Positions 1 to 62,929 are shown, counted from the stretch's first letter. The stretch: DNA of 64,000 bases from Chiloscyllium plagiosum (GCF_004010195.1 NC_057719.1:11036507-11100506); one strand, 5' to 3'. Translations and numbers: made by a program. The notes: generated from the sequence alone by a model not told the origin.

Positions 1-132
1 GAGCAGGAAAAATCGACATTTCGGGCAAAAGCCCTTCATCAGGAAATGAAGGGCTTTTGCCCGAAATGTCAATTTTCCTGCACTTCAGATGCTGCCTGAC
101 CTGCTTTGCTTTTCCTGCACCACTCTGATCTT
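1..132. mobile_element. Penelope-like element (PLE) terminus, inverted pair, truncated by window edge
   Basis: GACATTTCGGGCAAAAGCCCTTCA followed by its reverse complement TGAAGGGCTTTTGCCCGAAATGTC. Same family as the terminus attached to the GIY-YIG fragment at 33613-34417. Confidence 0.8.
15..42 (-). ncRNA. Minimal type I hammerhead ribozyme motif (PLE-associated)
   Basis: Minus strand CUGAUGA-A-GGGC-UUUU-GCCC-GAAA-UGUC. Core intact; helix I weak. Confidence 0.6.
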
Positions 133-739
133 GATGGTGGGATTTGAACCTATGTTCCCAGAACATTAGTCTGAGGTCCTGAGTAGTAAGCCAATGACAT
201 TACCACTATGCCACCACTACCCTTAGTTGACATGATGATAGTTTCACTCTAACAGCTGACAATTCTGATGTCCACAGGCGATTATCCTATTCAGTTTGTC
301 ACACAGATCCTGCTAGTTAACAGCCAAGGTTGTGTCTTCAGGAGTTCCACAAACCCCCAGAAAAATTCAGGGTCAACATGTGGGAACTACTCAACTGTGA
401 AGGGAGTTCTCTCCTATAGCTGGAGGTGAAGCCAAAAAGGAACATCAGTCTGAATAGAGCCTCTCTTTTAATTCTATTACAGAATGTGGGTGTCACTGGC
501 TGGGCCAGCATTTGTTGCCCCTCTCTAATAGCCCTTGAGAAGGTAGTGGTGAGCTACATTGTTGAGCTGTTGATGTCCACAGCCATAAGTACACTCACGG
601 TGGGGAGTTTAGGTCTTGATCCAGTGACTGAAGGAACAGCCTGTGTTATATGTTTACATGGGCGTGGCAGATAATGACACTGGTAGAACAGACGTTTTTT
701 TCTCTCTCTCAGAACAAGAAATGCAATATTTATAACATT

Positions 740-1900
740 TACAATTCTCCAGTCCTGTGGAAACATTCCCATATCTAAGGAGGATTGGAAGATTGGAAGG
801 AGTGGAGAAAGGTTTGTTGAGGAGTTCTCCATGGGTTAGTGTTGGGACCCTTGCTTTTCCTGATGCATGTTAATGATCTGGATCTTGGTGCACAAAGATG
901 TGGGGACAATTTCAAAGTTTTCAGATGATATTAAAACTGGAAGGATTGTAAACTATGAGGTGGACAGTGTGGAAATCCAAAACAACACTGACAAGATCAC
1001 TGTTGGAGTGGGCAAACAGGTGGCCCATGAGGCAATGTACTTTGGTCAAAAGAACACTATAAGCATAAAAGGGTGCAGGAGCAGATACACCTGAGTGTAT
1101 ATGTACACAGATCATTGAAGCTGGAGAGAGTAGAAAATAAAGCTGAGCTTTTCGCAGTTTTGTTAATAGAGGCATAGAATATAAGAGCAAGGAGACTTGT
1201 GCAAAACATTTTTTTGATCTTCACTCAATTATTGTGTACAGTCGATGATGCCACATTATGTTAAAAATGTGAAATTGCCAGAGTCGCGAGGACTATAGGC
1301 CTGCTCTCTCATTGGAGAGCGAAAAACACGACTGGTAGTAGCTTAACCCTGAGGGTTAACACACCTCAGGCGAGGAGTGAGGTTTAGATGGTGGAACTGT
1401 CATGGTAACCTCAGTTGGTGCAGGAAATGAACCCACGCTGTTGGCATCAGTGCGTTGCAAACCAGTCACCCATTTAGGAATTTATGAGAATGGATCCGCG
1501 GATGAGGAACTTCAGTTATGAGGACAGATTTAAGAAGTTGCGACTGTTTTCTTTGAAAAGAAGACGACTAAAAGGAGATCTGATAGAGGTTTTCAAAATC
1601 ATGCAGGGGCTCAATAGTGTTTCTCGATAGATAGAAACAGACCTTGCTCATAAAAGAACAAGAACAAACGGGCATAGAGAAAAAAAACTTTTCCCCCAGC
1701 TAACAGTTAGGGCATGGAATGCACTACCTGGAAATGCGGTGGTGGCAGATTCAATTGAGGCATTCAAGAGGAGCATTGCATGATTATTTGGATAGAAATG
1801 GTATGCGGGGATATGGGAACAGGTAGGAGATTGGGGTTAGGTAACAGAGCCAGTGCAGGCATAAAGGGCCCAATGGCCTCCTTTTAAGCTGTAACAGTGT
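740..1900 (+). mobile_element. Degenerate CR1 LINE ORF2 3' part, interrupted by a SINE (~1280-1475, minus)
   Basis: RT remnants SVLGPLLF and ISKFSDDIKTG; CR1-type 3' end near 1860-1900. Confidence 0.75.
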
Positions 1901-2784
1901 TGTGATTATAACCATCTTACCATCCGACATCTGGTCATGTGGTACCTGATCAAGTGCCATCATTTATTGTAGTGGTGGTTTGAAAGAGCTGTATGTTGAA
2001 TGCTGTACAAAAGAGCAACACGAGCCCATTAGCTGATTGATGTGATGTTGCAGAGTGATGTTCTGCAATTGTATTCTTGGGGTGGGGATTGTGTTGTGTG
2101 CTGTAATCAATCAGACAGTGGACACAAAGTCACTTTAATCACCTGAAAGTCAAACTCCTGTGTTCTGTCTGGTGACATTTTCTAGCAGTTGCTGGCAGAC
2201 CGTTGATTTAATTGAAGGGATCATTAAGGCTGTGAAATAGGAGATGTCACCCTGAAGTGCTATCCATTCTGTGTATGTTTTCCAAACCTCCTCCTTCCCT
2301 AAAAAGGGTAACACAGGCTAAAGTATGTTGACTATTTGTACCAACGAAGCTCCATGAATTACTCTACAATGGACCAACAATGACAAAAGCTGGTGGAAGC
2401 ATTTGTGAACCATAGGTTTAAGCTCACTTGCTCCCTTAAGTATCTTAGACTTACTATATGCTAGTAGCCTATACCTTCAACAATTTACCTGTTCTATCAC
2501 TGAAGCACAGTAGCAGCAGTGTGTACCATCTACAATATGCATTGACGCCATGGTTCAGTGGGTAACACACTCACCAATAAATCTTTGAGCATACAAATCT
2601 AGACCAACATTCCACGGGTAGTAGGAGTGCTGCTTTGCAGGTGTTATCTTTCAAACCAGCCAATAAGATAAGGCTTCATTTGCCTCTGAAGGAGGGAGGG
2701 AGAAGCTACGAGCCCTCTGACACAAATAACGGAGCATTATTCCCAAACACTTACATCTTAGCTAATATTTATCTCTCAGTATTA

Positions 2785-3340
2785 GAGTGCAGGTTCATAG
2801 CTCCTTGAAAGTGGAGTCGTAGGTAGATAGGATAGTGAAGACGACGTTTGGTATGTTTTCCTTTATTGGACAGAGTATTGAGTACAGGAGTTGGGGGGTC
2901 ATGTTGTGGCTGTACAGGACATTGGTTAGGCCACTGTTGGAATATTGCATGCAATTCTGGTCTCCTTCCTATCGGAAAGATATTGTGAAACTTGAAAGGG
3001 TTCAGAAAAGATTTACAAGGATGTTGACAGGGTTGGAGGATTTGAGCTGTAGGGAGAGGTTTAATAGGCTGGGGCTGTTTTCCCTGGAGCTTTGGAGGCT
3101 AAGGGGTGACCTTATAGAGGTTTATAAAATCATGAGGGGCATGGCCAGGGTAAATAGACAAAGTCTTTTCCATGGGGTTGGGGAGTCCAGAGCTAGAGGG
3201 CATAGGTTTAGGATGAGAGGGGAAAAATATAAAAGAGACCTAAGGGGCAACTTTTTCACTCAGAGGGTGGTACATGTATGGAATGAGCTGCCAGAGGAAG
3301 TGATGGAGGCTAGTACAATTGCAATATTTAAAAGGCATTA
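2785..3340 (+). mobile_element. CR1 (HER1-like) LINE ORF2 C-terminal fragment
   Basis: ORF 2835..3341 has LYRTLVRPLLEYCMQFWSP...[13 protein letters not shown]...FFTQRVVHVWNELP. Confidence 0.9.
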
Positions 3341-3439
3341 ACAAGGGATTATCAAGCAATTTAATTCATTCAGTGCAGTGTTCATTTCCCATCGGACTTG
3401 GTCCTTGAGAGTTGCTGGTGACCTGCCTTCTTAAACTAC

Positions 3440-5030
3440 AAGTAGGAACAGTTTCTTGCTATCTACTCAACCCAATCTCTTCCTGATTTTGTAAACCTCT
3501 ATCAGATCTCCTTTGAGCTTTCTTCTCTCCAAGAACTATCCCAACTTTTTTTTGATTAGGTTCCCTACAGTGTGGAAACAGACCCTTCGGCCCAACAAGT
3601 CCACACTGACCCTCCAAAGAGTAACCCATTTCCCTACCCTATATTTACTCCTGACTAAGGCACCTAACACTACGGGTAATTTAGCATGGCAAATTCACCT
3701 GGCCTGCACATCTTTGGACTGTGGGAGGAAACCGGAGCACCCAGAGGAAACCCACGCAAACATGGGGAGAATGTGCAAACTCCACACAAGACAGTCACCC
3801 AAGGCGGGAATCGAACCCAGGTCCCTGGTGCTGTGAGGCGCCATGCCACCCAAACTTCTTCAATGTATCCTCATAACTAAAATTTCTCATCCCTGGAACA
3901 ATTCTTGCAAATCCCTTCTGCACTGTCTCCAATGCATTCAATTCATTCTTATATGGCATTGCATCCTTGCTTTCTCTTCATGGCTTATTTTCCGAACTAT
4001 CTTTGTCACCTAGGCAAATCTGGTGACCACACGTTCATTCCCTTCTTCCAAGTCATTTACACAAACTGTAAACAGTTCAGGTCCCTGCACTTACCCCTGT
4101 GGCATATTACTCGCTAACATCTTTCCAAATTGTAAAACAACCCACTAATGCCTGTTCTCTGTTTTCTGTGGGCCAATCAATCTTCTCTCCATATCAGGAT
4201 ACTTCCTCCTACCCTATTAGCAATTATTTTCCATGATAATGTACAGTATGACACTTTACCAAACACCTTCTGGAAGTCTAAGTACAGTATATCTACCAGT
4301 TCCCCTTCATCCACGACGTATATCATCTCCTCAAAGAACTCCAACAGATTTGTCAAACGTAATTTCCTTTTCACAAAACCATGTTGACTTTGCCTGATAC
4401 CTTGAACTTATTAAAGTGCCCTACAATAAATTTCTGACAGTTTTCATATGACAGCTAGAGAGCTAAATGGCCCACATTCTGCCTTCCTCTCTTTTTGAAT
4501 AAACAAGTTACCTTCTTTACCTTCCAATCTAATGGGAATGTCTCCAAATCGAGGAAGTTTTGAAACATTAAAACCAATGCGTCAACTATCTCACTAGGCA
4601 CTTGTTAGTCACAGCTTCAATGACTTACTCAGTACTACTTCCTGGTGATTGCATTTGTCCCTTGTTCCTCCCTCCTTTCTATGTCCTGATTTATCACTGC
4701 TTCTGTCACGTTACTTGTATCCCCTACAGTAAATACGGATGCAAATTATCTGCTCAATTCTTCTGCCATTTCCTTATGATCCATTATTATTTCCCAATCT
4801 CAGTTTCTATAGATCCCCCAACGGCTCACTATGTTCACTCTTTTCTTTATCAAATATTTACAGAAACTCTATCTTTTTACCTTTCTCTCACACTCCATTT
4901 TTTCATAATAATTATTTTGGTCATTCTTTGTTTGTTTCATATCCTGTGCAATCTTCTGACCTGATACCTTGTCTTTGCACAATTATTTGCTCTTTCTTTA
5001 AATTTGATGCTAAATTTATAATTTCTAGTC
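3440..5030 (-). mobile_element. Degenerate CR1 LINE, interrupted by an HE1 SINE
   Basis: ORF 4177..4374 contains the CR1 RT motif LTNLLEFFEE...VDILYLDFQKVF. Confidence 0.75.
3554..3851 (-). mobile_element. HE1-type V-SINE
   Basis: Reverse complement of tRNA-like head (B box GGTTCGATTCC), V-domain GCGTGGGTTTCCTCTGGGTGCTCCGGTTTCCTCCCACAGTCCAAAG and CR1-like tail. Confidence 0.9.
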
Positions 5031-5034
5031 ATTA

Positions 5035-5984
5035 AATCATAGTCGTAGAGATCTACAGCATGAACCAGGCCCTTCAGCCCAAGACGGCCATGCCAACCAG
5101 GTTTGCGAAACTGCACTAGTCCCATTTGCCTGCATTTTGCTCACATTCCTTTTCTATCCATGTACCTGTCTAAATAAAGAGTCAGAGAGTCATAAAGATG
5201 TACAGCACAGAAACAGACCCTTCGGTCCAACTCATCCATACCGACCAGATATCCGAAATTAACCTCGTTCCATTTGCCAGCACCTGGTCCATATCCCTCT
5301 AAATCCTTCCTATTCATATATCCATCCAGATGCCTTTTAAATGCTGTAATTGTAACAGCCTCCACCACTTCCTCTGGCAGCTCATTCCATACACTCACCA
5401 CCCTCTGAGTCAAAAAGCTGCCCATTAGGTCCCTTTTTCAATCTTTCTCCTCTCACTTTATACCTCTGCCTTCTAGTTTTGGACTCTCCTATCCTGGGAA
5501 AAGAATTGATCTACTTATCCTATCCATACCCTTCATGATTTTATAAAGCTCTATAAGATCACCCCTCAGCCTCCGATGCTCCAGGGAAAATAGCCCCAGT
5601 CTATTTAGCCTCTCCCTATAGCTCAAACCCTCCTACCCTGGCAACATCCTTGTAAATCTTTTCTGAACCCTTTAAAATTTCACAACATCTTTCCGGGAGC
5701 ACGGAGAACAGAACTGCACGCAGTATTCCAACAGTGGCCTAAATATTGTCCTGTACAGCCAGAACATGACCTCCCAACTCCTGTACTCGATGCTCTGACC
5801 AATAAAGGAAAGCATACCAAACACCTTCTTCACTATCCTATCTACCTGCGACTCTACCTTCAAGAAACTATGAACCTGCACTTCAAGGTCTCTTTGTTCA
5901 GAAACACTCCTCAAGACCTTATCATTAAGTGTATAAGTCCTGCCCTGATTTGCCTTTCCAAAATGCAGCACCTCGCACTTATCT
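5035..5984 (-). mobile_element. CR1 LINE 3' fragments (nested 3' ends), continuing at 7608
   Basis: ORFs 5141..5425 and 5672..5971 are the CR1 ORF2 C-terminus; the sequence resumes in register after 7607. Confidence 0.88.
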
Positions 5985-7607
5985 GGATGGCAGGGTGAAA
6001 TGTGAGGAGGATGTTAGGAGATTACAGGGTGACCTGGACAGGTTAGGTGAGTGGACAGATGCATGGCAGATGCAGTTTAATGTGGATAAATGTATGGTTA
6101 TCCACTTTGGTGGCAAGAACAGGAAGGCTGATTATTACCTAAATGGAGTCAAATTAGGTAAAGGGGCAGTACAAAGAGATCTGGGTGTTCTTGTACACCA
6201 GTCAATGAAGGCAAGCATACAAGTACAGCAGTTGGTGAAGAAGGCTAATAGCATGCTGGCCTTCATAACAAGAGGGATTGAGTATAGAAGCAAAGAGGTT
6301 CTTCTGCAGCTGTACAGGGCCCTGGTGAGACCGCACCTGGAATATTATGTGCAGTTCTGGTCTCCAAATTTGAGGAAAGACATTCTGGCTATTGAGGGAG
6401 TGCAGCGTAGGTTCATGAGGTCAATTCCTGGAATGGCGGGNNNNNNNNNNNNNNNNNNNNNNNNNNNNNNNNNNNNNNNNNNNNNNNNNNNNNNNNNNNN
6501 NNNNNNNNNNNNNNNNNNNNNNNNNNNNNNNNNNNNNNNNNNNNNNNNNNNNNNNNNNNNNNNNNNNNNNNNNNNNNNNNNNNNNNNNNNNNNNNNNNNN
6601 NNNNNNNNNNNNNNNNNNNNNNNNNNNNNNNNNNNNNNNNNNNNNNNNNNNNNNNNNNNNNNNNNNNNNNNNNNNNNNNNNNNNNNNNNNNNNNNNNNNN
6701 NNNNNNNNNNNNNNNNNNNNNNNNNNNNNNNNNNNNNNNNNNNNNNNNNNNNNNNNNNNNNNNNNNNNNNNNNNNNNNNNNNNNNNNNNNNNNNNNNNNN
6801 NNNNNNNNNNNNNNNNNNNNNNNNNNNNNNNNNNNNNNNNNNNNNNNNNNNNNNNNNNNNNNNNNNNNNNNNNNNNNNNNNNNNNNNNNNNNNNNNNNNN
6901 NNNNNNNAGAATTATGAACTTGCATTCCTGGCCTCCGTGTTCCACAATACGATGCAACGCCCAATCACTAATTGTATTCCGCATTCTTATTTGTCTTTCC
7001 AAAATGGACAACCTCACACTTGACGGGGTGAACTCCATCTTGCCACTCCTCAGCCCAGCTCTGCATCATATCCAAGTCCCTTTTCAGCGACAACAGTCCT
7101 GCTCACTATCCACAACTCCACCAATCTTTGTATCGTCTGCAAATTTACTGACCCACCCTTCGTCTCCCTCATCTAAGTCATTAATAAAAATTACAAACAG
7201 CAGAGGACCCAGAACTGATCCCTGCGGAACTCCACTTGTAACTGGGCTCCAGGCTGAATATTTACTATCTACCACCACTCTCTGCCTTCGACCGGTTAGC
7301 CAGTTTTCTATCCATTAGGACAGAGATGAGGAGAAACTTCTTCACCCAGAGAGTGGTGGGTGTGGGGAATGCTCTGCCCCGAGAAGGCAGTGGAGGCCCA
7401 GTCTCTGGATTTGTTTAAGAAAGAATTGGATGGAGCACTCAAGGATAGTGGAATCAAGGGTTATGGAGATAAGGCAGGAACAGGATACTGATTGAGGATG
7501 ATCAGCCATGATCATAATGAATGGTGGTGCAGGCTCGAAGGGCTGAATGGTGGTGCAGGCTCGAAGAGCTGAATGGCCTACTCCTGCACCTATTGTCTAT
7601 TGTCTAT
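5985..7607 (+). mobile_element. CR1 LINE of a second subfamily inserted into the preceding CR1; spans a gap and contains an inverted CR1 RT piece (6908-7315)
   Basis: LQGDLDRLGEW...WQMQFNVDKC...RPHLEYYVQFWSP; ends in a (CTATTGT)n tail. Internal minus piece encodes [20 protein letters not shown]...FADDTK. Confidence 0.88.
6441..6907. other. Assembly gap (N run)
   Basis: Run of N. Confidence 1.
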
Positions 7608-8820
7608 CTAAATTAAACTCCATCTGCCACTCCTCAGCTCATTGGCCCATCTGATCAAGATCCCATTGTACTCTGAGGTAACCTTCTTGCTGTCCACTAC
7701 ATCTCCAATTTTGGTGTCATCTGCAAACTTACTAACCACACCTCCTATGTTCACATCCAAATCATTCATATAAATTACAAAACGCAGTGGACCCAGCACG
7801 AATCCTTTTGGCACACTGCCGATCGCAGACCTCCAATCTAAAAAGCAACTCTCCACCACCACCCGTTTTTGAGGCAGTTCTGTATCCGAATGGCTGGTTC
7901 TTCCTGTATTCCACACACAATAACCTTGCTAACCAGTCTACCATGAGGAACCATAATGAAGGCCTTACTGAAGTCCATACAGATCATGTCCACTGTTTTG
8001 CCCTCATCAATCCTCTTTGTTACTTCTTCAAAAAACTCAATCAAGTTAGCGAGACACAATTTCCCATGCACAAAGCCATGTTGACTATCCTTCATCAGTC
8101 CTTGCCTTTCCAAATACCACATTTTAAATGTTGCAATTGTACCTGCCTCTACCACTTCCTCTGGCAGATCGTTCCATATATACACCACTCTCTGTATGAA
8201 AATGTTTCCCTCAAGTCCCTTTAAAATCTTTTCCCTCTCACCTTAAACCTATGTCCTCTAGTTTTGGATTCCCCTACCCTGGGGAAAAGACCTTGGCTAT
8301 TTACCCTAACTATGCCCCTCATGATTTTATAAACTTTTATGATATCACCCCACAAACTCCTACATTACAGGAAAAGAGGTCCCAACCTCATAAATCGAAT
8401 CTTCCAGTCTTAGTAACATCCCCGTAAATCTTCTTTGCACCTTTTCCAGTTTAATAACACCCTTTCTATTCCAGGGCAACTAGACTTGTGCACAGTGCTC
8501 CAAATGAGGCCTCACCAATATCTTGTACAGCCGTAACATGACATCCCAACTCCTGTATTCAATGCTCCAACCAATGAAGGCAAGCATGTCAAATACTTCC
8601 TTCACCACTCTGTATATCTGTTATACCACTTTCAAGGAACTATGGACCTGCGCCTCTAGGTATCTCTGTTTGACCGCACTCCCCAGGCCCTACCATGATC
8701 TGTGTAAGTCCTATCTTGGTTTATCTTACCAAAACGCAACACCTCACATTTATCTGAATTAAATTCCATCTGCCATTTCTGGGTCCACCTGCCAAGTTGA
8801 TCAAAATCCCATTGTACTCT
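7608..8820 (-). mobile_element. CR1 LINE RT fragments
   Basis: ORFs 7608..7916 and 7838..8188 contain FADDTK, SQHGF and NLIEFFEEV motifs. Confidence 0.85.
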
Positions 8821-9426
8821 AAGATGACCTGAGATAGTTTATCAAGGTTGGTTGATCTATCCCTTTGCGAGTTTTTGTACACATGGCAATATAACTATTT
8901 GCTGTTTTTTGAAATATCCACTTAAATGTCTGCTACCACTTTTCCACTGACATGTCCTTTAACCCAATTTGCCAATTCACTTTAGCCAGCTCTGCTCTCA
9001 TACTGTCATAATTGTCATTATTAAATTAGATGACCCCACTATTTCATTGAGAATCCTGTCTACATCGCCAGTTATGTGGCCCCAGTCAGGTGAAGACTGT
9101 CCCATCAGATGCAAATCCTACTTTCCCCAGTCCGGATGCTCGCTCTTCACAAACCTGAACCCACATCTTCCACACCAGTTTTTCAACCATGCATACATCT
9201 CTCTACTTTGATTGGCACTATGGTTCAGGTAATAATGCAGAGATCTGATTTGCCAGTTCTGCTTCTTAACTGGGCACCTCGCTCAACATACTGCTAACAC
9301 AGAACCGCCTTCTTTGTCCTGCCTGTGTTGTTGGCAGATACCTGGACCACGACGATGAGCTTTTCTTGGTAGTGGACAATGAAGTCATGTGCCCAGACCA
9401 CATTCTGTGCCTTTGCCACCCTCAGT

Positions 9427-9584
9427 GGGCGGCACGGTGGCACAGTGGTTAGCACTGCTGCCTCTCAGCGCCAGAGACCCGGGTTCAATTCCCGCCTCAG
9501 GCGACTGACTGTGTGGAGTTTGCACATTCTCCCCGTGTCTGCGTGGGTTTCCTCCGGGTGCTCCGGTTTCCTCCCACAGTCCAA
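9427..9584 (+). mobile_element. HE1-type V-SINE, young copy running into the gap
   Basis: GGGCGGCACGGTGGCACAGTGGTTAGCACT (A box), GGTTCAATTCC (B box), then the V-domain. Confidence 0.92.
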
Positions 9585-10569: not shown

Positions 10570-10994
10570 GTCTAGATTATAGTGGTGCTGGAAAAGCACA
10601 ACAGGTCAGGCAGCATCTGAGGAGCAGGAAAATCGACATATCGGGTAAAAGCCCTTCCTGATGAACGGCCTTTGCCTAAAACGTCGATTTTCCTGCTCCT
10701 CGGATGCTGCCTGACCTGCTGTGCTTTTCCAGCACCACTTTAATCTAAAAATCACACAATATCAGGTTATAGTCCAACAGGTTTAATTGGAAACATTAGC
10801 TTTTGGAGCGCTGGTCCTTCACCTGATGAAGGAGCGGTGCTCCAAAAGCTAGTGCTTCCAATTAAACCTGTTGGACCATACTCTGGTGTTGTGTTATTTT
10901 TAACTTTGTACATTCCCAGTCCAACACCAGCATCTCCAAATCACTCTAAACTAGATTCTGGTCTCCAGCATCTGCAGTCCTCACTTTCTCCGCT
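10570..10994. mobile_element. Nested PLE termini: a family-1 inverted pair with a family-2 inverted pair (~10748-10943) inside it
   Basis: Two palindromic units, each centred on a CTGATGA motif (10658, 10823). Flanking direct repeat CCAGGAATTA at 10560 and 10995. Confidence 0.8.
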
Positions 10995-13739: not shown

Positions 13740-13767
13740 CTGAAGAAGGGCATGTGCCCGAAACGTC
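13740..13767 (+). ncRNA. Minimal hammerhead ribozyme motif
   Basis: CUGAAGA-A-GGGC-AUGU-GCCC-GAAA-CGUC. Core intact; native 5' arm of helix I replaced by flank. Confidence 0.6.
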
Positions 13768-13862
13768 GAATCTTCTGTTCCCTAGATGCTGCCTGACCTG
13801 CTGTGCTGTTCCAGCAATAAAGTTTCAGCTTTGATCTCCAGCGTCTGCAGACCTCACTTTCT
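13743..13862 (+). mobile_element. Short PLE 3'-terminal insertion with 17-bp flanking duplication
   Basis: CCATGAAACCATCACTG at 13726-13742 and 13863-13879; ends in CTGCAGACCTCACTTTCT. Confidence 0.85.
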
Positions 13863-42158: not shown

Positions 42159-42173
42159 TATTTTAACTACAGT

Positions 42174-48697: not shown

Positions 48698-48988
48698 CAT
48701 GAGCTGCATAAAGCTAATTACCCAAGTGTCCATTTAATGGCAAGTCAGGGACTCTCACAAACCCACATGGCATTCCCATGCCTCCCAAAGACTGCCCAGC
48801 TAATCCTGTCAGGTGACTACTTTCTGCGTGCACAAGTGACACGGCACTGGAAAGGCAACAGAGGGTGTTTGGAAAGCCAAACCCCTCTCTCCAAATCCCT
48901 CACTAGATACCCACTATGCCCCCACTTACATTCCATTACCAGCAACCACTTTCTGTCAAAGCCAACTGATTTCTCACTCATCTACACA

Positions 48989-49270
48989 GCGGCTCAGTGG
49001 TTAGCACTGCAGCCTCACAGCACCAGGGTCCCAGGTTCAATTCCAGCCTCGGCCGACTGTCTGTGTAAAGTTTGCACATTCTTCCCGTGTCTGTGTGGGT
49101 TTCCTCTGACAGTCCAAAGATATGCAGGCCAGGTGAATTGGCTATGCTAAATTGCCCATAGTGTTAGGTGCATTAGTCAAAGGGAAATGGGTCTGGGTGG
49201 GTTACTCTTCGGAGGATTGGTGTGGACTGGTTGGGCCGAAGGGCCTGTTTCCACACTGTAATCTAATCTA
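48989..49270 (+). mobile_element. HE1-type V-SINE
   Basis: Head, partly deleted V-domain, tail with (AATCT)n. Confidence 0.9.
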
Positions 49271-51660: not shown

Positions 51661-51873
51661 GAGAGTCAATAAGTATGGTGCTGGAAAAGCGCAGCCGGTC
51701 AGGCGGCATCCGAGGAGGAGGAGGACAGTCGATGTTTCGAGCATAAGATCTTCTTCAGGAAGAGTCAAAACATCGACTTCCTGCTCTTCGGATGCTGCCT
51801 GACCAGCTGCACTTTTCCAGCACCGTACTTTTTCACTCTGATCTCCAGCATCTGCAGTCCTCTCTTTTCTCCC
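51661..51873. mobile_element. PLE terminus inverted pair
   Basis: 51661-51740 is the reverse complement of 51768-51840; the tail is present on the right arm only. Confidence 0.85.
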
Positions 51874-52968
51874 AGAATTGAAGGAGGCTCAAAATGTGTT
51901 CCATTTCTGGATCACAGAGACCAATATGGGCTGCTTGGTCAGAATGGCCTGCTTGCTGAAATACAATGTCATTCTTCATAATTCTATCTCACAAAAAAAA
52001 TAATTTACTGGAGGTCTGAGGTCCTAACTGAAGCAGGCCCCACTATCCCAACTTGAAGATGCTTCGGGAACCAGAGGAAGAAAAATGTAAAATAAACCAT
52101 GAAGAAGAGGGAAGCTTGAACTGAAGCCAGGGCTTCACTCACTGCTCCAGAATGGCACACACCAGGGCCATACAGTGTCACAATTAATTAGCTTGTCAAT
52201 GTTTGGCAGCTGGATTAATATTAAAACATGTCGTGCAAAATAATTATCTACTGAAGCAAACTGAGAACAAGGCTGTATGTACTCTGCATCTGAGCGCGGT
52301 TAAAAATGATATCACAATATTATGATCCTTCTTAAAGGGGAAATTGCACTTATCTCTCCCAACAGCTGGAACAATTTTAAAGTTTCCCACTTGAGTCTGT
52401 CAACACTGCAACTCCACCAGACAAGGATTTGCATCATTCCAAAACTGAAGTTTTAGAAATAATTTAAAAAGAATTTTTTAACATGGACCAGATGCCCTTG
52501 ATTACCGTCAGGTTTGATGCGTATTACCAAATCTTCAGATTGTTGCAAGTTAAAAGCAAGAACGCATTTACTTACAAAGTTATAAGGGGCGGTATTAAAA
52601 AGCAGAAATCTATCCATTTGAATAATGAGAAAGAGGGAGAAAGAGAAAATGACATCAGGTAAGATTGAGGTAAAATCAACCATTATAGTAAATTTGCAGA
52701 GAGAGTTTAAGAACAGAGACTTGGTACTAACTACAGCAGGGACTTGAGTTGGATTGAGTACATGAGAGTCTAGGTGGTTCTTGCAACAAAAGAAGAAGTT
52801 ACATGAAGCTGGAGGGAATCCTATGAACAGCCTGATAAGCTGATGGCATTTATAAGGTTCAAGAAGCCAAACAAGTAAATTAGCTCTAGGCATATGGAAT
52901 GAGCTGCCAGCGGAAGTAGTTGAGGCAGGTATACGAACAACATTTAAAAGGTATTTAGACAAATATAT

Positions 52969-53873: not shown

Positions 53874-56627
53874 TATGAAGTGATTTGATAGGGTGGGTAT
53901 TCGGAGGATGTTTCCTCCGGTGGGGGAGGCTAGAACTTGGAAACACAGTTTAAGAGTAAGAGGCATCACTTTCAAAATGGGGATGAGGAAATTTTTTTCT
54001 CACTAAATTGTTTCTCTATGACTCTCTGAGGTCTCTGGAATTCTGTTTCACAGAAAGCTTTGGAAACTGGGTCATTGAATTTATTCAAGGCAGAGTTAGA
54101 TAGAGTTTTGATAGGCCAAGGGAATCAAGGGCTGTTGAGAATGGGTGGTTTAAGGGGCAGACAGGAAAGTGGGGTGAAAGCTAAAGGCAGATCATCCATG
54201 ATCTTACTCCATGCCAGAGCAGACTTGATGTCCTTAAGTTCAGCAGACAAAGACGGACTGATCTCCATCACGTTGGGAAGATGACATGGACTGGATGACC
54301 ATTTTGTGGAATATTTTCATTCAGTCCACAATCATGGTCCTGAATTTCTAGTTGTTTGTCATTTTAATTATTCACTTTACTCCCTAGCTAACATTTTCAC
54401 CCTCTGCTACATCATTCCAATGAACACCATCTTATTTTTCCACTCAACAGTCGCAACCTTCTGGACTCAACATTGGGAAAAACAGCTTCAGATCACAACG
54501 TCTACCTTGATCTTGCTTTGAGATTGCCTCTTACCTTTTTATTTTGCTTTGCTGAATTAGTCTCATTCTTTCTTCTTCCCTTTCATGTTGCGTGCAGACA
54601 GCTGCTATGTACCCTTCCCACCTCATCCAGACAGTTTTGTTTCTATATCAGATCCATTCACACCCCTTTGGGCTGTTGCATCACAAAATCTTTTGTTATT
54701 TAATCTCTCCTGCCCTCCACTCCATTACAGACCTTCTTTTGCCTACTTGAGTCCTGTGACCCTTCTTCAGGACTCAGTTCTCCAGACAGTGATTCTGTTT
54801 TCTCTCCACAGACTCGCTGAGCTTCTCCAGCAATTTCTGATTTTGCTTGTTTCAGATCTCTGCATTGCTTTTGTTTTATTCCTTTTTTTCCTACCTATCC
54901 CTTTGCCCCACCTTCTACTGGTTAAAACCTGCTCCATTCGATGTTTCTTCAGTTTTGATGAAAGTTCATTGATCTGAAATGTTAACACTGTTTCTCTTCA
55001 GAGATGCCTCCCTACCTGCTACCTATTTTAGCATGTTTTGTTTTTATTGTACTGGATATTAGTTCTGCTTCAAGTTTAAAAGGGATGCTATTATAGTTTC
55101 AGAATTGACTTCAACACCCATTGCTCAACTCTCGCGATATCATTGGACTCAATGCTGGCTTGAAATACGAAGGTTGATAACGGACAGCTTGTTTGAGATC
55201 ATTTATTGATCCTCACATGGGAAGGGTTCGTAGATGAATTCTTAAAGCAGAATTCAGTTTCAGGAACAATCTGAAAATTTGCTTTTGAAATTAAATGTTT
55301 AAAGCTGTATGGAGTGATAATAAATACAAATGACCCACAAACATTTTCAGCCATTGCTAACAGATATCATTGTCTAACAGTCTTCCCCCCTTTATCGTAT
55401 ATTCTACTGCCATGACACGTCTGTCTAGAAGGACAAGGGAAGCAGATACATGTGACCATCACCACTTGCAAGTTCCCCTCCAAGCCACTGACCATCCTGA
55501 CTTGGAAATATTTTGCCTATCTTTCACTGTCATTGTGTCAAAGTGCTTTGGGAATTCCCTCCCTAATGGCATTGTGGGGCTACCAATAGCACGGGGACTG
55601 CAGTGGTTCAAGAAGGCAGCTCACCACCATCTTCTCAAGGGCAACTAGAGCAGGCAGAACATGCTGGCTACCCAGGGATGCCCACATCCCACGAGTAAAT
55701 GTATTAAAAAAAACTTCTAACTGTTGCTAAATGAAGATGAAGCTTCCTACCTTGAACTCAGCAGGACTAAAATGCAAACATCTTGAAGGAACCAACAAGT
55801 TGTACAGCATATGGCTAATAGCCCAACCAAGCAGCATCCTCTTCTCACGTCAGTGTTAATCAATTGTTAATTAATTATTAATTGCTGTTCTTTATGCATC
55901 CAAAAATCATTATTTCACCATTGGCAGCTGTGTCTTAGCAGCTTGGATCCTAAGAATGTAGAACTCCTTCCTTAAGTCTCTCTGCCTCCATAGCTCTCTT
56001 GCCTCCTTTTAAATGCTATTTCATCCATGCTGATTCTCTTAGTCTGCCTGGGTGTCTGATTACTGCGCTGTTACTTGGGGCACTGCAATATGTTTCAGGT
56101 GCCATTTTAATGCAAAATACTGCTGTGGTCTAAAGAAAACTTCTGGATGCACTGGGAGCACATCAAAGGCTGGGTCTGTGACATTGAATCGTTTTTATGC
56201 TTTCAACACATGCACAGCCTAATCCCCTGACTGACCTATCTGAATTTTACATGCTTATGTCACCTGCTTGTTTTGCTGGCCCTGCTATTATTTTCTTCAG
56301 CTGCTCGAGGTGAAGCAGTGAGAGTATCTTCAGGTTGACTGAGAATCTCCTAATGGTCCAGCGCTGCGCAGCATCTCGGGACGGCTGATGCATCTGTAGA
56401 TTGTTGCTGGGGTAACACATCCAGCTCCTGGAAGTAGCATTTTTGCAGAACTGATATCATGCCTTGCGGCTTCTAATCACACATTACTGATACATTCAGG
56501 TCATCCAGGAGGGCGCTAATCCCTGTGAAAATGCTGTGTCTGAAAGTCACCAACTCTCATTTCAAAGTAAGGCAGGGTGGAGTGAGAGGTGGGGTGGTGG
56601 CCAGGGCCATGACATCAAAGTCAAAGT

Positions 56628-57052
56628 GTGGAGATGCTGGCATTGCACTAGGGTGGACAAATTCAGAAGTCCCACAACACCAGGTTATAGTAACAGGTTT
56701 ATTTGAAAGCTTTCAGAGGGCTGCTCCTTTATCCATTGAAGTCTCTCCTGAATCAGAAAGCTATCATGTTGCTATTTTGTGATGTTGCCACAGCTATCTG
56801 ACAAAGGAGCAGTGCTCTGAAAACTTGCAATTCCAATTAAGCTTGTGAGACTATATCCTGGTGTTGCATGATTTTTAACTTTGTGAAAGACAAAGGCAGT
56901 GGCAGCATCACAAAGTAGCTTTCTGACTGTGGAGAGCCTTCACTTGATGAAGGTGCTGCGCTCCGAAAGCTTGTGGTTTCAAACAAACCTGTTGGACTAT
57001 AAGCTGGTGTCCTGTGACTTCCGACTTTTGTCCACCCCACTGGCACCTCCAC
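56628..57052. mobile_element. Family-2 PLE termini in a fold-back arrangement with three hammerhead-like motifs
   Basis: Arms 56628-56795 and 56895-57052 are inverted copies. Motifs at 56798-56826 (+) and 56944-56972 (+), and an inverted remnant at ~56706-56733. Confidence 0.75.
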
Positions 57053-58684: not shown

Positions 58685-58810
58685 TCTGAAGAAGGGCTTA
58701 TGCCCGAAACGTCGATTCTCCTGTTCCCTGGATGCTGCCTGACCTGCTGCGCTTTTCCAGCAACACATTTCCAGCTCTGATCTCCAGCATCTGCAGACCT
58801 CACTTTCTCC
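58685..58810 (+). mobile_element. Short PLE 3'-terminal insertion into CR1 with 18-bp flanking duplication
   Basis: TCAGAACTTCAAGAAAGT at 58667-58684 and 58811-58828. Confidence 0.9.
58686..58713 (+). ncRNA. Minimal hammerhead ribozyme motif
   Basis: CUGAAGA-A-GGGC-UUAU-GCCC-GAAA-CGUC; core intact. Confidence 0.65.
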
Positions 58811-61049
58811 TCAGAACTTCAAGAAAGTCAGTCAAGGAAGTGAGTGCAGTGGTCATCACTAAAGAGAAGGTGCTGGGGAAGCTGAAAGGTCTGAAGGTGG
58901 ATAAATAACCTGGACCAGATGAACAATGCCCCAGGGTCTGAAAGAGATTGCTGAGGAGATTGTAGAGGCATTTATGGTGATCTTTTGGAATCGCTGGAGT
59001 CAGAGTGGGTCCCAAAGGATTGGAAAATGGTTAACGTAATACCCCTCTTCAAGATGGGAGGGAGGTAAAAGGCAGGAAAACCACAGGCCAATTAGCCTGA
59101 CCTCAGTCGATGCAAGGTTTTAGAGTCCATTTTAAGGGTGAGATTGCTAAGTACTTGGAAATGCATGGTGAAATGGGGCTAAGTCAGCATGGCTTTGTCA
59201 AGATGAGGTCATGCTTGACAAATCTGTTGGAATTCTTTGAGAAGCCAATGGGCGAGTTTGACAAAGGAGAGCCTATGGTGTCAGGGGCAAGATGCTGGCA
59301 TGGAGAGAGGATTGGCTGACTGGCAGACTACAGAGAATAAGGATAAAGGAGTCTTCAGAAGAACTTGGCAGGCTAGAAAAATGGACGAAGAAGTGACAGG
59401 TGGAATACAATGTGGGCAAGTGTGAGGTTCCTACCTTGGTGGGAAGAATAGAGATGTAAAATATTTTCCAAATGGGGAAAGGCTTCAGAAATCTGAAGCG
59501 CAAAGGGACTTGGGAGGTTAACATAAAGTTTCAGTTGGTAGCTAGGAAGAGAAATGCAATGTTAGCATTCACTTCAAGAGGGCCAGAATACAAGAGCAGA
59601 GATTGACTGCTGAGACTGTATAAAGCTCTGATCTGACCATATTTGGAATATTACGACCCTATATATAAGGATGGATGTACTGGCATTGCAGAGGGTCCAG
59701 AGGAGGTTTATAAGAGTGATCCCTGTAATGAAGGGCCTGTCATATGAAGAGCAATTGAAGACTCTGGGTCTGTCCTTGATGCGAATTTAGAAGGATGATG
59801 GGAGATCTGATTGAAAGTTACAGGATGCTGAGAGGCCTGGATAGAGTGGATATGGAGATGTTGTGTCCAGTAACAGGACAGACTAGGATCTGAGGGTACA
59901 GGATCTGAAGGAATGACTCTTTAGAACTGAGTTAAGTAGGTATTTCTTCAGCCAGAGTCTGGTTAATCTGTTAATATCATTGCTGCAGAAGGCTGTGAAA
60001 GTCAAGTTATTGAGTGTATTTAAGACAGAAATAGGTAAGTTTTTGATTAGTAAGAGAATCAAGGGTTACAGGGAGAAGTTGGAGAATGGGATTGAGAAAC
60101 ACAGCAACAATGAATGAATAACTGTTGTAACAGACTCAAGAGGCCAAATGGCTTAATTCTCCTATATCTTATGGTGAGCTCAGATGGCTAGATAGCTGGT
60201 TTGCAATGCAGAGTGATGGGTTCAGTTCCCTCACTGACTGAGGACCTTCTCAACCTCACCCTTCGCCTGAGGCATAGTGACCCTCAGGTTGAGCCAGCAG
60301 TCCTGTGGTCTATGGCATGTTTAGCACACTAACAGTGCAAATGGGAGTTCCAGGATATTGACCAAGTGAGAGTGAAGGAAAGACGATGTGGTTCGAAGTC
60401 AGGATGGTGTGTGGTTTGGACTGTAACTTGCAGGTGGTCATGCACCTGCTGCCCTAGGCCTTTTAACGGTCACAGTGTCAGATGGTGTCATTGAAGAGAG
60501 TCCTGGCGAGTTGGAACAGTGCATCATGTCGATCGTACACATTGCCATCACTATGCATCAGTGTTGAAGGGAGTAAATGTTGAAGGTTGCAGGCAGGATG
60601 TTTGGTCTGAAAGGTATCAAGCTTCATGGGTGTTCTTGGAGCTGCACTCATCCAGCCAAGTGGACAGAATTCCATCATATCCTGACCTGTGCTTATTAAT
60701 GGTGGACAGAAAGTGAACTAATTGTTACAGAATTTTGATCTTCTGACCTGGTCTTGCAGCCACAGTATTTATATAGCTGGTCCAGTTCAGTTTCAAGTCA
60801 ATGGTCACCCCCAGATCTTGATAGTGGAAGATTTGGTGATGATAATGCTTCTGAAAGTCAAGGGCGATGTTTAGTTTCTCTGGTGTTGGAGATAATCATT
60901 GACTGGCACTTACAATACCTGAATGGTACTTGCTACTTATTGGCCAAAACTGGATATTGTCCAGGACTTGCTGCATCTGGATACACATTCCTTCAGTACC
61001 TATGGAGTCACACCTGGTGCTGAACATTGTGTAAACATTGACTCACATC

Positions 61050-62003
61050 CTGGATCAGTACACTCTATGTGTAATTAAAAGGTGACTTGGTGATCAGATA
61101 CTGGCCTCTGTGCTGCCGAGGGAAAAGCATCCTCCTGAAGAAGTTTACTTGCAACAGTCATCTTTGAGTTGGGGTAAGCATTCCTGGCATCATTCCATAA
61201 TTTGGGAAACTTGACTTGTTTGATGCTGCCGTCGAAGACTGGGCCCAAATGCAACAAGATCTGATCTGTAGTGACTGCAACAAGATCAGCCATGTGGACT
61301 TCACAGAATGAGTTCACTACTTGGGCCAGATTAACAGCCCCAATCAGGGAGCCCTGGCTGACAGATAAGTACAGGAATGCAGGTCTGAAGGCCTCCTCGT
61401 GGGTTTGTTCCTGGGCCTGGCCAAACTGGCCAGCAACAGGTCCAGGCAGCGGGCCGTGGAGGGGGTCGTTAGGGCCGACTGCCTGCCCCTCTTCCGCGGT
61501 TACGTTAGAGCCTGGGTGTCCTTGGAGAAGGAGCACGCGGTGTCGACCAACGCGCTGGAGTTGTTCAGGGAGAGGTGGGCGCCGCAGGGAGTGGAGTGCA
61601 TTATTTCTCCCTCCAACTCTATTTTGATTTAGTCCCTACCCTCCCCTTCACTGTTTTGATCACACAGCACTGCCCTTTGATGTGAAGGGCAGTGTTTGTC
61701 ACTGGCCACCCAGGTGTTTTCCTATCTTCCTGGTGGTGGAATTTGAATAAAGATTTGTGCACTTTGTGTCTTTCACTGTTTAAATAAAAAGAAAAAAATA
61801 TATAAACAGGAGTCCAGCACTGCCCTTTGATGTGAAGGGCAGTGCTTGACATTGGCCACCCAAAAAAGAAAAAAAAAGTACAGGAATGCCAGACATCCTG
61901 TTCACTCTGACAGCTGGCTCTGATGGAGCTGGAGCATGGACTTTCCATGCGTAATTAAAGGATGACTTGGTGACGGGATACTAGCCTCTGTGGAGTTATT
62001 TCA
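61050..62003 (+). mobile_element. Internally deleted Gypsy element: partial 5' LTR (61050-61112), gag start remnant (~61191-61256), 3' LTR 61267-62003 interrupted by Tx1
   Basis: GTAATTAAA.G.TGACTTGGTGA...GATACT.GCCTCTGTG repeated at ~61071 and ~61951; P*FGKLDLFDAAVEDWAQ gag-like N-terminus; LTR TGTAG...TTTCA. Confidence 0.75.
61381..61875 (+). mobile_element. 5'-truncated Tx1-clade non-LTR retrotransposon with 14-bp TSD
   Basis: Open frame RSEGLLVGLFLGLAKLASNRSR...LFRGYVRAWVSLEKE...FRERW to TAG at 61632 (Tx1 ORF2 C-terminus), AATAAA, A-rich tail. TSD AAGTACAGGAATGC at 61367-61380 and 61876-61889. Confidence 0.85.
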
Positions 62004-62841
62004 TGGACAAAATCCAGACATGGGCTGACAAATTGTTAGTAACATTCATGTCACACAAGTGCCAGGCAATCACCATTTCCAACTCAAGGGAAACTAACCA
62101 CCACCCTTTGATTTTCATTGATATCTGTATCATTGAATCCCCCTCTATCAACATCCTCGGGGTTACTGGAGTGTGACAGAACTCTCCCCTCTTGCCTAGA
62201 TGGGTGCAGCTCCAACAAGAAGTTTGACACCATTCAGAACAAAGTAGCTCATTTGATTGGGACTACAACCACCACCTACGCTCAGTAGCAATAGCATGTA
62301 GTATCTATAAGATATACTGCAGAAATTCATGAAGGCTCCGAAGACATCACCTTCCAAATCTTTCTCGAAGGACAAGGGCAGCAGATACATGGAAACACCA
62401 GTACATACACATACCCCTCTAAGCAACACCATCTTGACTTGGAAATATATCGCCATTCCTTCAGTGTTGCTGGGCAAAATTCCTGGAACTCCCTTTCCAA
62501 TGGCATTGTGGGTCAAGAAGGCATTTCACCGCCACGTTCTGAAGGGCAGCTAGGATGGAAAATGAATGCTAGCCCAGCCAGCAACGCTCATGGCCCACCA
62601 GTGAATAAAAAAGAATAAATCAGCATTGTTCCAGAGTTGATTGAGGCGGTGCTCCCTGGACATTTTATTTAAGTGCAGGGCTCTTGTGGCACATTGGCAT
62701 TATCTGTCCTTCTGGGCCAGAAGGCCCAGGTTCAATCCCACGTGCTCCAGAGGTATGTCATAACACTTTCCTTAATGATTAATATAAGAAAGAAGAGCTG
62801 GGTTGTTCGGGGGAGAAGGGGAGGGAGGAAGAACACGAAGT

Positions 62842-62927
62842 TGAAACTTTATTGCTGGAACAGCACAGCAGGTCAGGCAGCATCCAGGGAACAGGAGATT
62901 CGACGTTTCGGGCACAGGCCCTTCTTC
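62842..62927 (-). mobile_element. Short PLE terminal insertion with 16-bp flanking duplication
   Basis: AGGAAGAACACGAAGT at 62826-62841 and 62928-62943. Confidence 0.85.
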
Positions 62928-62929
62928 AG
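62902..62929 (-). ncRNA. Minimal hammerhead ribozyme motif, on the ADCK1 sense strand
   Basis: Minus strand UUC-CUGAAGA-A-GGGC-CUGU-GCCC-GAAA-CGUC-GAA: intact core, 3-bp helix I, ACGU palindromic helix III. Confidence 0.7.

Follow-up and report, generated by a model that had tools for sequence, protein, structure and literature searches.

The window analysed here, a 64,000-nucleotide stretch of Chiloscyllium plagiosum DNA, raises the question of whether the short hammerhead motifs scattered along it are genuine, what carried them there and whether they still act as ribozymes. The 64-kb window was scanned with the descriptor CTGANGAAN{9,18}GAAANNTH, which returned eight exact matches, compared to a mean of 0.16 and a maximum of 2 in 100 shuffles, demonstrating that the motifs are real. 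The matches are the six cores that an earlier note had called intact (starting at 15, 13740, 18510, 35307, 58686 and 62902), all holding CUGAnGA-A-helix II-GAAA-nnUH with zero core mismatches, plus 35906-35935(-) and 51731-51758(-). The core letters are intact in all six, but three are not fully intact: helix III is AUGU at 15-42(-), the core-adjacent helix I pairs of the 13740 core were lost to target DNA, and the 18510 core ends in GUU. When decayed copies are included, 20 copies span the motif (11 in family A, 3 in B and 6 in C), so that the claim of more than ten motifs is true of decayed and intact copies together and not of exact matches. These copies were scored by program, except that the core register of c1 was read by hand. 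Among the 16 matches at E<=5 in an Rfam search of the window, there was no hammerhead family.

The conserved core (CUGAnGA / GAAA / UH) fits the majority of each family, and G10.1 is the majority state in A, B and C. An extra A lies between positions 9 and 10.1 in 19 of the 20 scored copies, the twentieth being c1, whose register was off by one base. Helix III is a loopless palindrome, ACGU in 7/11 family-A copies and AGCU in 2/3 family-B copies; the remaining variants are mostly CpG-decay forms. Helix II is GGGC/GCCY in family A, GGAGC/GCUCC in B and GGGUC/GACYC in C. All three families announced by the earlier note are thus present, but its six cores all belong to A, and each of the nine scored B and C copies has a core change or a broken helix I or III. 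The reported helix I variants (UUC/GAA, CAC/GUG and AGCU/AGCU) were each found, although most A copies carry a U-U mismatch at the third pair (unpaired in 7/11). Covariation was also claimed. Within family A it did not exceed shuffles, the covariation score being reached by 72/500 shuffles and the share paired being equalled or exceeded in 115/500. Comparison of A, B and C shows changes on both sides at several helix I, II and III pairs, the core staying fixed while the helices differ yet pair; this apparent between-family covariation rests on three families read by hand.

The motif is the minimal hammerhead of Penelope-like elements (PLEs) already described in 2014 in the pseudo-LTRs of metazoan PLEs (Cervera and de la Pena, PMC4209133). 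According to the sections of that paper used here, the two share the loopless palindromic helix III (15.2-16.2), the short helix I, the extra base between 9 and 10.1, the G10.1-C11.1 pair, several consensus families per genome, a majority of single motifs from truncated PLEs and some opposite-strand pairs 100-700 bp apart; fish Xena, Poseidon and Neptune elements are among its sources. Helix II is shorter here (4-5 bp vs. 7-8 bp in Schistosoma), the host is a cartilaginous fish, none of which is named in its results and discussion, and 20 copies in 64 kb represent a far higher density than the 4,000-9,000 per genome reported there for coelacanth and Xenopus. The very high abundance expected genome-wide was borne out by 127,977 and 109,666 matching DNA contigs in two runs (contigs, not copies).

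The family-A copies are laid out as follows; the longest is listed further below.

1-135, both strands: inverted pair a1(-)/a2(+), clipped by the window edge, arm starts -3 and +4
15-42, minus strand: core of a1, helix III not palindromic
10582-10993, both strands: inverted pair a3(-)/a4(+), junction within the hammerhead 5' half (arm starts +6 and -3, 3-nt microhomology), a4 with G12>A and a nested family-B insertion that separates off its tail (10951-10991), 14-bp flanking direct repeat at 10560/10995 with 1 mismatch
13740-13864, plus strand: solo stub a5, start +1 (core), tail, target DNA in place of the helix I 5' strand, 17-bp flanking direct repeat at 13726/13863
17098-17235, both strands: asymmetric inverted pair a6(-)/a7(+), a6 spanning only +78..+127 (tail) and a7 +6..+91, 10-bp flanking direct repeat
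18411-18615, both strands: inverted pair a8(-)/a9(+), a8 with core 18510-18537, start -2 and tail, a9 starting at about +8..+16 and tailless, no flanking repeat found
20486-20612, minus strand: solo stub a10, start about +7, tail, 14-bp flanking direct repeat
34985-35400, both strands: inverted pair a12(-)/a13(+), a12 with core at 35110 and tail, a13 with intact core 35307-35334, each arm reaching upstream of the core by about 90 nt, 17-bp flanking direct repeat with 2 mismatches
39360-39490, plus strand: solo stub a14, start -4..-7, G12>A, tail, no flanking repeat found
51664-51875, both strands: inverted pair a15(-)/a16(+), a15 with core 51731-51758, start -3 and no tail, a16 starting at +6 (read by hand) with a 7-nt gap in helix II and a tail
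58685-58812, plus strand: solo stub a17, intact core 58686-58713, tail, 18-bp flanking direct repeat at 58667/58811
62838-62932, minus strand: solo stub a18, intact core 62902-62929, helix I UUC/GAA, tailless, 16-bp flanking direct repeat that overlaps the first bases of the stub

Family B and the shorter copies of family C are:

10749-10938, both strands: family-B inverted pair b2(-)/b1(+), nested where the body of a4 meets its tail, with the b1 core at 10823(+) showing G12>A, helix I CAC/GUG, helix III AGCU and triplet CUA
56659-57028, both strands: family-B cluster of inverted arms b5(-)/b4(+), both extending about 50 nt upstream (b4 core 56944, C3>U), with a third stub b3(+) between them (56798, G8>A)
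17707-17812, plus strand: family-C stub c3, decayed core with 2 changes
26680-26782, plus strand: decayed family-C copy c5, a paralogue of c4 with a deletion of the helix III region
28359-28466, minus strand: decayed family-C copy c4
34735-34838, plus strand: family-C solo stub c1, start -4 (helix I), helix I AGCU/AGCU, three core changes, 10-bp flanking direct repeat
35866-35935, minus strand: family-C stub c2, intact core, broken helices I and III

Flanking direct repeats of 10-18 bp with a score of at least 10 were present at 9/17 insertion events, compared to 0.3% of 572 random position pairs; at 8/17 events no clear flanking repeat was found. The 3' ends fall into two classes, near +84..+93 and +121..+133, and the stretch between them, the tail, fits the 30-40 bp tail of the PLE papers. 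Seven pairs in family A and two in family B are head-to-head. Families A, B and C consist of 5'-truncated PLE ends, flanked by target-site duplications and showing a 3' tail and inverted arms in head-to-head order.

The link between a hammerhead and a GIY-YIG endonuclease fragment at 33613-34417 was confirmed, as an inverted pair with endonuclease pieces on each arm. Two old family-C copies extend in the same direction.

33617-34417, both strands: family-A inverted pair a11(+)/a19(-), the longest PLE remnant, joined at about 33889/33890, 15-bp flanking direct repeat at 33605/34419 with 1 mismatch
46455-46970, minus strand: old family-C copy c7, core at about 46567, 3' UTR upstream, weak match to the endonuclease C-terminus at 46842-46967 (E 0.03-0.2)
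54285-55050, plus strand: old family-C copy c6, core 54955, C3>U, decayed GIY-YIG piece upstream at 54291-54404 (E 6e-4, window-sized search)

The plus arm, a11, carries a GIY-YIG piece at 33890-34088 with a frameshift and a 33-nt deletion, a foreign repeat end inserted at about 34121-34187, and then 3' UTR, hammerhead (34291; G12>A, helix II GAGC/GCUC), body and tail; the hammerhead is in sense, terminal position about 200 nt 3' of the same-strand endonuclease piece. The minus arm, a19, keeps a GIY-YIG N-terminal piece at 33773-33889 with one stop and has lost its hammerhead. The endonuclease pieces resemble GIY-YIG proteins in sequence searches. In alignment with Pfam GIY-YIG-positive proteins, the CxxC of the CCHH motif lies on the minus arm and its two His on the plus arm; the window fragments searched themselves gave no GIY-YIG match. 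The closest named protein is an RT-endonuclease of Chiloscyllium punctatum (60% identity over 70 aligned positions), with further named relatives in Rhincodon, Stegostoma, Mobula and Hypanus. Relatives have reverse transcriptase (RT), CX2-5CxxC linker and GIY-YIG in one chain, a combination that marks Neptune/Nematis (PMC8557442); within the 64-kb window no RT, linker or full-length element was found. Family A is joined to GIY-YIG remnants that by homology are of Neptune type, and the two family-C matches point weakly to the same link; family B has no protein link in the window. Neptune-clade endonuclease-bearing PLEs (Craig et al. 2021, PMC8557442; Arkhipova et al. 2013, PMC3846280) share the C-terminal GIY-YIG with CxxC and two His of CCHH, 5' truncation, an adjacent head-to-head inverted copy, an optional 30-40 bp tail, short target duplications (8-10 bp in Adineta, PMC3846280, vs. 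10-18 bp here) and TATA plus initiator-like words in the pseudo-LTR. Descriptor enrichment, core and helix marks and the GIY-YIG link together uphold the placing of minimal type I hammerheads at PLE termini.

The copies start not at the cut site but at the ribozyme's front edge, and this is what is most telling about them. Family-A arms start within -10..+16 in 13/19 cases by local alignment (14/19 with a16 read by hand), 14/19 lie within the narrower -7..+12, and no arm among the 19 begins immediately after the predicted cut (+29); a body-only search of the window revealed no additional arm. Against a uniform null, crude and of our own choice, 10/11 events gave p of about 3e-7 after scan correction. 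Genome-wide, inversion joints pile up at -5..-1 (13 of the 15 listed joints are opposite-strand with one side there; there are 127 further joints). Solo stubs with flanking duplications begin at the same edge in several subfamilies and in family C (c1). The portions of PMC8557442 and PMC3846280 drawn on here do not describe such a pile-up. The arm starts and joints suggest that uncleaved RNA is copied as far as a 5' end at helix I.

The transcript may have the first base of helix I as its own first base (about -4, the A of a YCAKTY word), with RT from the tail site of the 5' repeat running off uncleaved RNA to give a strong-stop-like cDNA of 95-130 nt; two such cDNAs, primed from both target strands, would be joined head-to-head through GAA/TTC-type self-complementarity around the core. 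Besides the 5' ends, joints and solo stubs just described, an A at -4 stands in a TCAKTY-like context in families A and C, and c7 has a TATA-like word 30 nt before it; from promoter consensus, we take the YCAKTY word to be initiator-like and the c7 word to be TATA-like. Arms a6 and a7 share only +78..+91, so that a7 is no fold-back copy of a6 as it stands, unless a later deletion is reflected. In the Poseidon element PAc of Anolis carolinensis (Frangieh et al. 2024, PMC11167929), two internal RT start sites, which delimit the tail, lie about 110-150 nt downstream of the hammerhead, target DNA is cut and extended on both strands, and uncleaved RNA is the main template; PAc belongs to a different PLE clade, its ORF begins at helix II, and the parts of that paper used here do not treat the 5' ends of short inserts. 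Against a start at helix I, RNA data (a poly(A) single-cell library, a weak test) revealed no site where many RNA molecules start or stop, the pile of loose ends at -4 is confounded by private bases of the reference copy at -5 and -7, the joints counted are only the 15 listed, and a clear initiator or TATA word is absent from family B. In D. virilis, an intron begins 46 nt after the transcription start and its 3' end marks helix I (PMC4209133), and a splice junction can therefore occupy the same place.

A stall of RT, or self-priming by fold-back of the cDNA, at the native hairpin around the core would also place 5' ends there, without the RNA ending at that point, and is an unlikely but serious alternative. 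The junctions of a1/a2, a3/a4, a15/a16 and b2/b1 are small palindromes around CUGAUGA with 3-6 nt of microhomology, self-priming has been proposed for palindromic PLE junctions in Adineta (PMC3846280), and the tail is on one arm only in 5/7 A/B pairs with both 3' ends visible and a junction-defined arm order, the pattern expected from fold-back. However, the solo, non-inverted stubs a5, a10, a14, a17 and a18 start at the same place, the arm of a15/a16 that reaches -3 is the tailless one, and a6/a7 would need a later deletion.

That the stubs represent non-autonomous mini-elements in their own right, similar to SINEs or retrozymes and with 130-nt masters of their own, is improbable. They are uniform in length and 5' end and very abundant, and non-coding, hammerhead-bearing, PLE-derived non-autonomous elements have been described, one chondrichthyan genome included (PMC7229834; bioRxiv 10.64898/2026.07.22.740005). 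Yet the sequence of a11, a12 and a13 runs on upstream into 3' UTR and endonuclease, and there are several diagnosable subfamilies with common end points. As these two sources describe them, animal non-LTR retrozymes have tandem arrays as their defining trait and typically show canonical hammerheads and circular RNA; the copies here occur singly or inverted, have minimal hammerheads and run on into PLE coding sequence, and the window holds no tandem array of the unit (Tandem Repeats Finder gave 3 arrays of period 14-26, none containing the motif).

The decay of the copies bears on their catalytic capacity. G12, part of a CpG, was changed in 5/17 arms, compared to 9/31 cells for body CpGs and 2/142 for the non-CpG core, and two DNA runs showed G12>A in about 9% and 11% of aligned contig depth. 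This catalytic base decays at the same pace as ordinary CpG sites, indicating neutral decay of the stubs. Four of the 20 copies (a8, a13, a17 and a18) retain the core together with helix II, a palindromic helix III and the helix I pairs next to the core. The suggestion that the dispersed copies are catalytic is not supported as stated: most are mutated, or alone and far from a same-strand partner, or in near-perfect hairpins of 70-200 bp. Cleavage as dimers, presented as established, is so only weakly, since the sections of PMC4209133 used here report inactive monomers and low activity in dimers and trimers, and the anole hammerhead depended on protein, and insertion in vitro did not require the ribozyme (PMC11167929). 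The helix III duplex is predicted at only -1.7 kcal/mol, and in folding of the five best copies as monomer and dimer the hammerhead was never the minimum-energy fold. That the copies form a large active pool cutting host pre-mRNA is very improbable: four are whole and the sequence occurs in RNA from both strands (3,344 of 12,955,460 reads, one run), but a8 and a13 lie in long hairpins (-146 to -300 kcal/mol), a17 and a18 lack, within several kb, an intact partner on their own strand whose helix III matches, dimers are weak in vitro, and G12 decays neutrally. Because so few copies are whole, two of them in long hairpins, and G12 decays at the CpG rate, the window motifs are mostly ribozyme fossils and not a reservoir of active catalysts.

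The motif, the families, the flanking duplications, the tail, the inversions, the endonuclease link and the decay pattern observed here are very probably explained by minimal type I hammerheads in the pseudo-LTR of endonuclease-bearing Neptune-type PLEs of cartilaginous fish, with neutrally decaying stubs. Target-primed copying, internal initiation and ribozyme activity in masters are taken from papers on other PLEs. The element protein would nick target DNA with a 10-18 nt stagger, and reverse transcription would start inside element RNA at one of two sites about 90 or 127 nt downstream of the core. Most insertions would end early, leaving 90-135 bp stubs, solo or as two head-to-head arms. 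The ribozyme fold would be selected in each family's active master elements, none of which was found among the window copies, and paired but different helices would surround a fixed core for this reason. After insertion the stubs would decay, and most would no longer be able to cleave.

We tentatively propose that elasmobranch Neptune-type PLE transcripts start at the first base of helix I, and that the very numerous 95-130 bp stubs are abortive strong-stop-like cDNAs initiated internally on the 5' repeat of uncleaved RNA, paired through both-strand priming and joining at core microhomology. If this is true, the stubs would be a genome-scale record of retrotransposition using RNA with an uncut hammerhead, and the question of what the PLE hammerhead is for would become countable.

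Hammerhead sequences were present as described at all six positions that the earlier note had cited as intact cores; all six belong to a single family, A. A strict descriptor matched the window 8 times, where 100 dinucleotide shuffles averaged 0.16 matches, and a relaxed scan together with self-comparison of the window yielded three repeat families, A, B and C. The whole motif was spanned by 20 copies (11 in family A, 3 in B and 6 in C). Helix II was GGGC/GCCY with a loop of four bases in family A, GGAGC/GCUCC in family B and GGGUC/GACYC in family C. The core, the full helix II, the palindromic helix III and the core-adjacent helix I pairs were kept together in 4 of the 20 copies:

18537, family-A copy a8: all scored features kept, ends GUU
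35307, family-A copy a13: all scored features kept
58686, family-A copy a17: all scored features kept
62929, family-A copy a18: all scored features kept

No copy in families B and C kept every scored feature. A retrozyme array was ruled out, as the copies are not in tandem. Rfam did not return a hammerhead family in the window at E<=5; its matches were chance microRNA-type ones, to which the inverted pairs gave rise, and a tRNA-like match just below threshold (14687-14769, minus strand, 27.5 bits vs. a threshold of 29), probably a SINE head. Rfam is blind to all of these motifs, and the annotation gap that the earlier note had named is real. The exact 31-nt body pattern was absent from both the viral and the metagenome contigs searched (0 loci in each).

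Paired cells amounted to 80.9% in family A (11 copies), compared to 13-46% in slid controls. The proposed covariation of the helices showed between the families on reading by hand; within family A (11 copies) the covariation measures did not exceed column shuffles (72 and 115 of 500 reached them). One clear compensatory change was observed in family A (helix II G-C to A-U in arms a11 and a15), and the third helix I pair was U-A in one subfamily. Around the common core, helix I was UUC/GA(A/U) in family A, CAC/GUG in B and AGUU/AACU or AGCU/AGCU in C; the third and fourth pairs of helix II varied between families, and helix III was ACGU in families A and C and AGCU in B. These between-family differences around the same core, read by hand in three families with no statistical test, are the real structural evidence. 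The motif has the sequence features of the minimal hammerhead of Penelope-like elements (PLEs) (Cervera and de la Pena 2014, PMC4209133).

The copies were inserted by retrotransposition. Of the 17 events examined, 9 (including 8 of the 11 family-A events) were flanked by direct repeats of 10-18 bp with a score of at least 10, using insertion boundaries placed by hand; 0.3% of 572 random position pairs reached that score. Numbering from C3 of the core CUGAnGA as +1, family-A 3' ends fell into two classes (about +84 to +93 and +121 to +133), spaced like the optional 30-40 bp PLE tail (PMC11167929; PMC8557442; PMC3846280). Seven A events and two B events were head-to-head inverted pairs, a layout already described for PLEs (PMC8557442; PMC3846280); truncated PLEs with a single motif, as well as pairs on opposite strands, have also been noted (Cervera and de la Pena 2014, PMC4209133). 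A family-B inverted pair (10749-10938, within 10582-10993) interrupted a family-A arm precisely where body and tail meet, so that the tail is now separate, and this site fits the reported preference of the PLE endonuclease for its own terminal repeat close to the tail. Two family-A events (126-200 and 17060-17290) had inserted at almost the same position in another short repeat of the host; GGATTTGAACC was present at both sites, a possible target preference. The upstream sequence of family B (56749-56797 and 56885-56943) ended in a 6-bp perfect hairpin enclosing the first half of the core, which would be a competitor to the hammerhead fold; between the two inverted B arms lay a third stub of this family. 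The segments 26647-26883 and 28265-28502 were approximately 82% identical 240-bp copies in opposite orientation, with a decayed family-C motif and common flanks; either a composite repeat of greater age or an inverted duplication at this locus would explain them.

The 5' ends were concentrated at the front edge of the hammerhead. Local alignment to three long copies placed 13 of 19 family-A arm starts within -10 to +16, and 14 of 19 once a16 was read by hand past a 7-nt gap; of the remaining arms one started at +78, two near -90 and two inside the endonuclease. None of the 19 started at +29, the first base past the predicted cut. A body-only search for overlooked family-A arms found none (20 matches: 18 A arms, one detached tail and one C copy). 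Ten of 11 events fell within a 19-nt window (scan-corrected p about 3e-7 under a crude uniform null; the two endonuclease-length arms, which form one event, were left out). Solo stubs with target duplications, and the family-C copy c1, started in the same zone. Of the 15 joints listed genome-wide (127 more exist), 13 were strand switches with one side at -5 to -1, and -4 was the largest upstream pile of loose ends in the RNA and in both DNA runs, where private bases of the probe copy favour clipping. Inversion joints were also inspected for a +29 peak as a cleavage signature; the best-supported joint among those listed had its second side there (15 and 12 contigs), but no such signature is claimed, because neighbours out to +46 were equally common and 127 joints lie beyond those listed. 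In families A and C the A at -4 lay inside a TCAKTY-like word, and the family-C copy c7 had a TATA-like word 30 nt upstream, as judged by the promoter consensus. TATA plus initiator-like words were reported in the terminal repeat of a rotifer PLE (PMC3846280).

We tentatively favour a reading in which the element RNA would begin at helix I of the hammerhead. Reverse transcriptase would initiate within the RNA, at the 5'-repeat tail site (a step modelled on the anole element, PMC11167929), and then run off the uncleaved 5' end; two such cDNAs, one per target strand, would give an inverted pair. The junctions of four pairs were small palindromes that draw on the GAA/TTC-type complementarity flanking the core. 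Stalling of the reverse transcriptase, or fold-back of the cDNA, at the core hairpin could instead set the 5' ends, which we consider somewhat less likely. Under either reading, copies with an intact front core half derive from RNA uncut at that hammerhead, or from the 3' repeat.

The inserted copies are probably not catalytic. The family-A motif has three CpGs, covering G12, a helix III pair and C17/G1.1. G12 was changed in 5 of 17 arms vs. 9 of 31 CpG cells in the body; non-CpG sites were changed in 2 of 142 cases in the core and 55 of 746 in the body, a figure that includes subfamily differences, while core sites near the 5' ends were ascertained by matching. G12>A reached about 9% and 11% of the matched depth in two DNA runs (10-22% at neighbouring CpG sites). 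These rates and depths suggest a core that stayed constant across the master subfamilies but could decay freely once inserted. Inverted pairs, whose two motifs lie on opposite strands, were predicted to fold as hairpins (-69 to -300 kcal/mol) burying the motif on either strand. The helix III duplex was -1.7 kcal/mol in folding, and the predicted minimum-energy structure was not the active hammerhead, a weak test because nearest-neighbour energies omit core tertiary contacts. The Schistosoma motif did not cleave as a monomer and cleaved weakly as dimers and trimers (Cervera and de la Pena 2014, PMC4209133); the anole motif required protein for cleavage, and insertion without cleavage was possible (PMC11167929). 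No pile of RNA read starts or ends was found at the cut site in a poly(A) single-cell run, an unsuited library.

The longest event (33617-34417, arms a11 and a19) had endonuclease remnants on both arms, bearing out the proposed GIY-YIG link. The window fragments alone gave no Pfam GIY-YIG match, and a word-index protein search with a 66-aa fragment gave no hit of any kind at E<=0.01; the link was established by exhaustive library search. With the minus-arm piece this returned 17 matches, 11 to short proteins that were PLE-like by eye (Pfam GIY-YIG at E<=0.007 in 7 of 11, 2 above the curated cut-off) and 6 to long proteins that look like unrelated Cys-rich matches. Across 70 positions the plus-arm piece shared 60% identity with an RT-thumb-plus-endonuclease protein of Chiloscyllium punctatum. 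Relatives in Rhincodon, Stegostoma, Chiloscyllium, Mobula and Hypanus combined RT, a CX2-5CxxC linker and GIY-YIG, an architecture that, judged by sequence, marks Neptune/Nematis and not Penelope/Poseidon. The terminal peptide of one Stegostoma protein resembled the translated hammerhead region (weakly, E 0.07), as an RT-linker-endonuclease-hammerhead order would predict. Weak same-strand endonuclease traces also lay upstream of two old family-C copies; within the window, neither a protein link for family B nor the RT of the Neptune-type relatives was found. Between endonuclease and hammerhead, the PLE carried an insertion (34121-34187) made up of the 3' end of a SINE/LINE-type repeat that is abundant and has an A-rich tail. 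Other repeats in the window were as follows; the non-LTR fragments are presumably CR1-like.

9426-9584: fuller copy of the SINE/LINE-type repeat
20983-21305: fuller copy of the same repeat
31321-31633: fuller copy of the same repeat
35556-35884: fuller copy of the same repeat
48985-49270: fuller copy of the same repeat
25499-26440, minus strand: non-LTR reverse transcriptase fragment (Pfam RVT_1, E 7e-20)
2823-3341: non-LTR reverse transcriptase fragment
5929-6440: non-LTR reverse transcriptase fragment
7838-8242: non-LTR reverse transcriptase fragment
48211-48576: non-LTR reverse transcriptase fragment
60325-62613: group of segments resembling one another, their open frames (120-186 codons) without a Pfam match, probably another decayed retroelement

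With a13 (intact core at 35307-35334) as probe at 82% likeness, 127,977 of 22.7 million contigs matched in a first public DNA run and 109,666 of 25.4 million in a second, from a second organism; these are contigs, not copies. In the poly(A) single-cell RNA run 3,344 of 12,955,460 reads matched a13, with a peak depth of 1,275 on one strand and 1,790 on the other, a pattern that dispersed copies within host transcripts would probably give; 0 of 8,328,510 reads matched in a second run of the same sample, which provides no test. Of the very large number of catalytic RNA motifs proposed in the earlier note, the abundance stands in contigs, but catalysis by inserted copies is not supported, given the neutral-like CpG decay and the hairpins.

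The motifs are real, a known kind in a new host, and mostly fossil. Minimal hammerheads in PLE ends are known from fish, coelacanth, frogs and reptiles. Apart from chondrichthyan retrozymes in a single genome, the main-text literature searched yielded neither elasmobranch hammerheads as such nor a description of 5' ends piling at the hammerhead; supplements to the 2014 paper and to a 2026 preprint may list shark motifs. As a catalogue entry the finding is ordinary; this host adds scale (roughly 10^5 matching contigs in each run) together with a clean PLE insertion footprint. If the 5' pile-up is a transcript start, the stubs discriminate between copying of uncleaved RNA and the published circular-RNA model, which requires cleavage and junctions at the cut site, and would account mechanistically for head-to-head inversions, which reviews leave unexplained. 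Host transcripts would also gain much double-stranded RNA from the numerous long inverted pairs.
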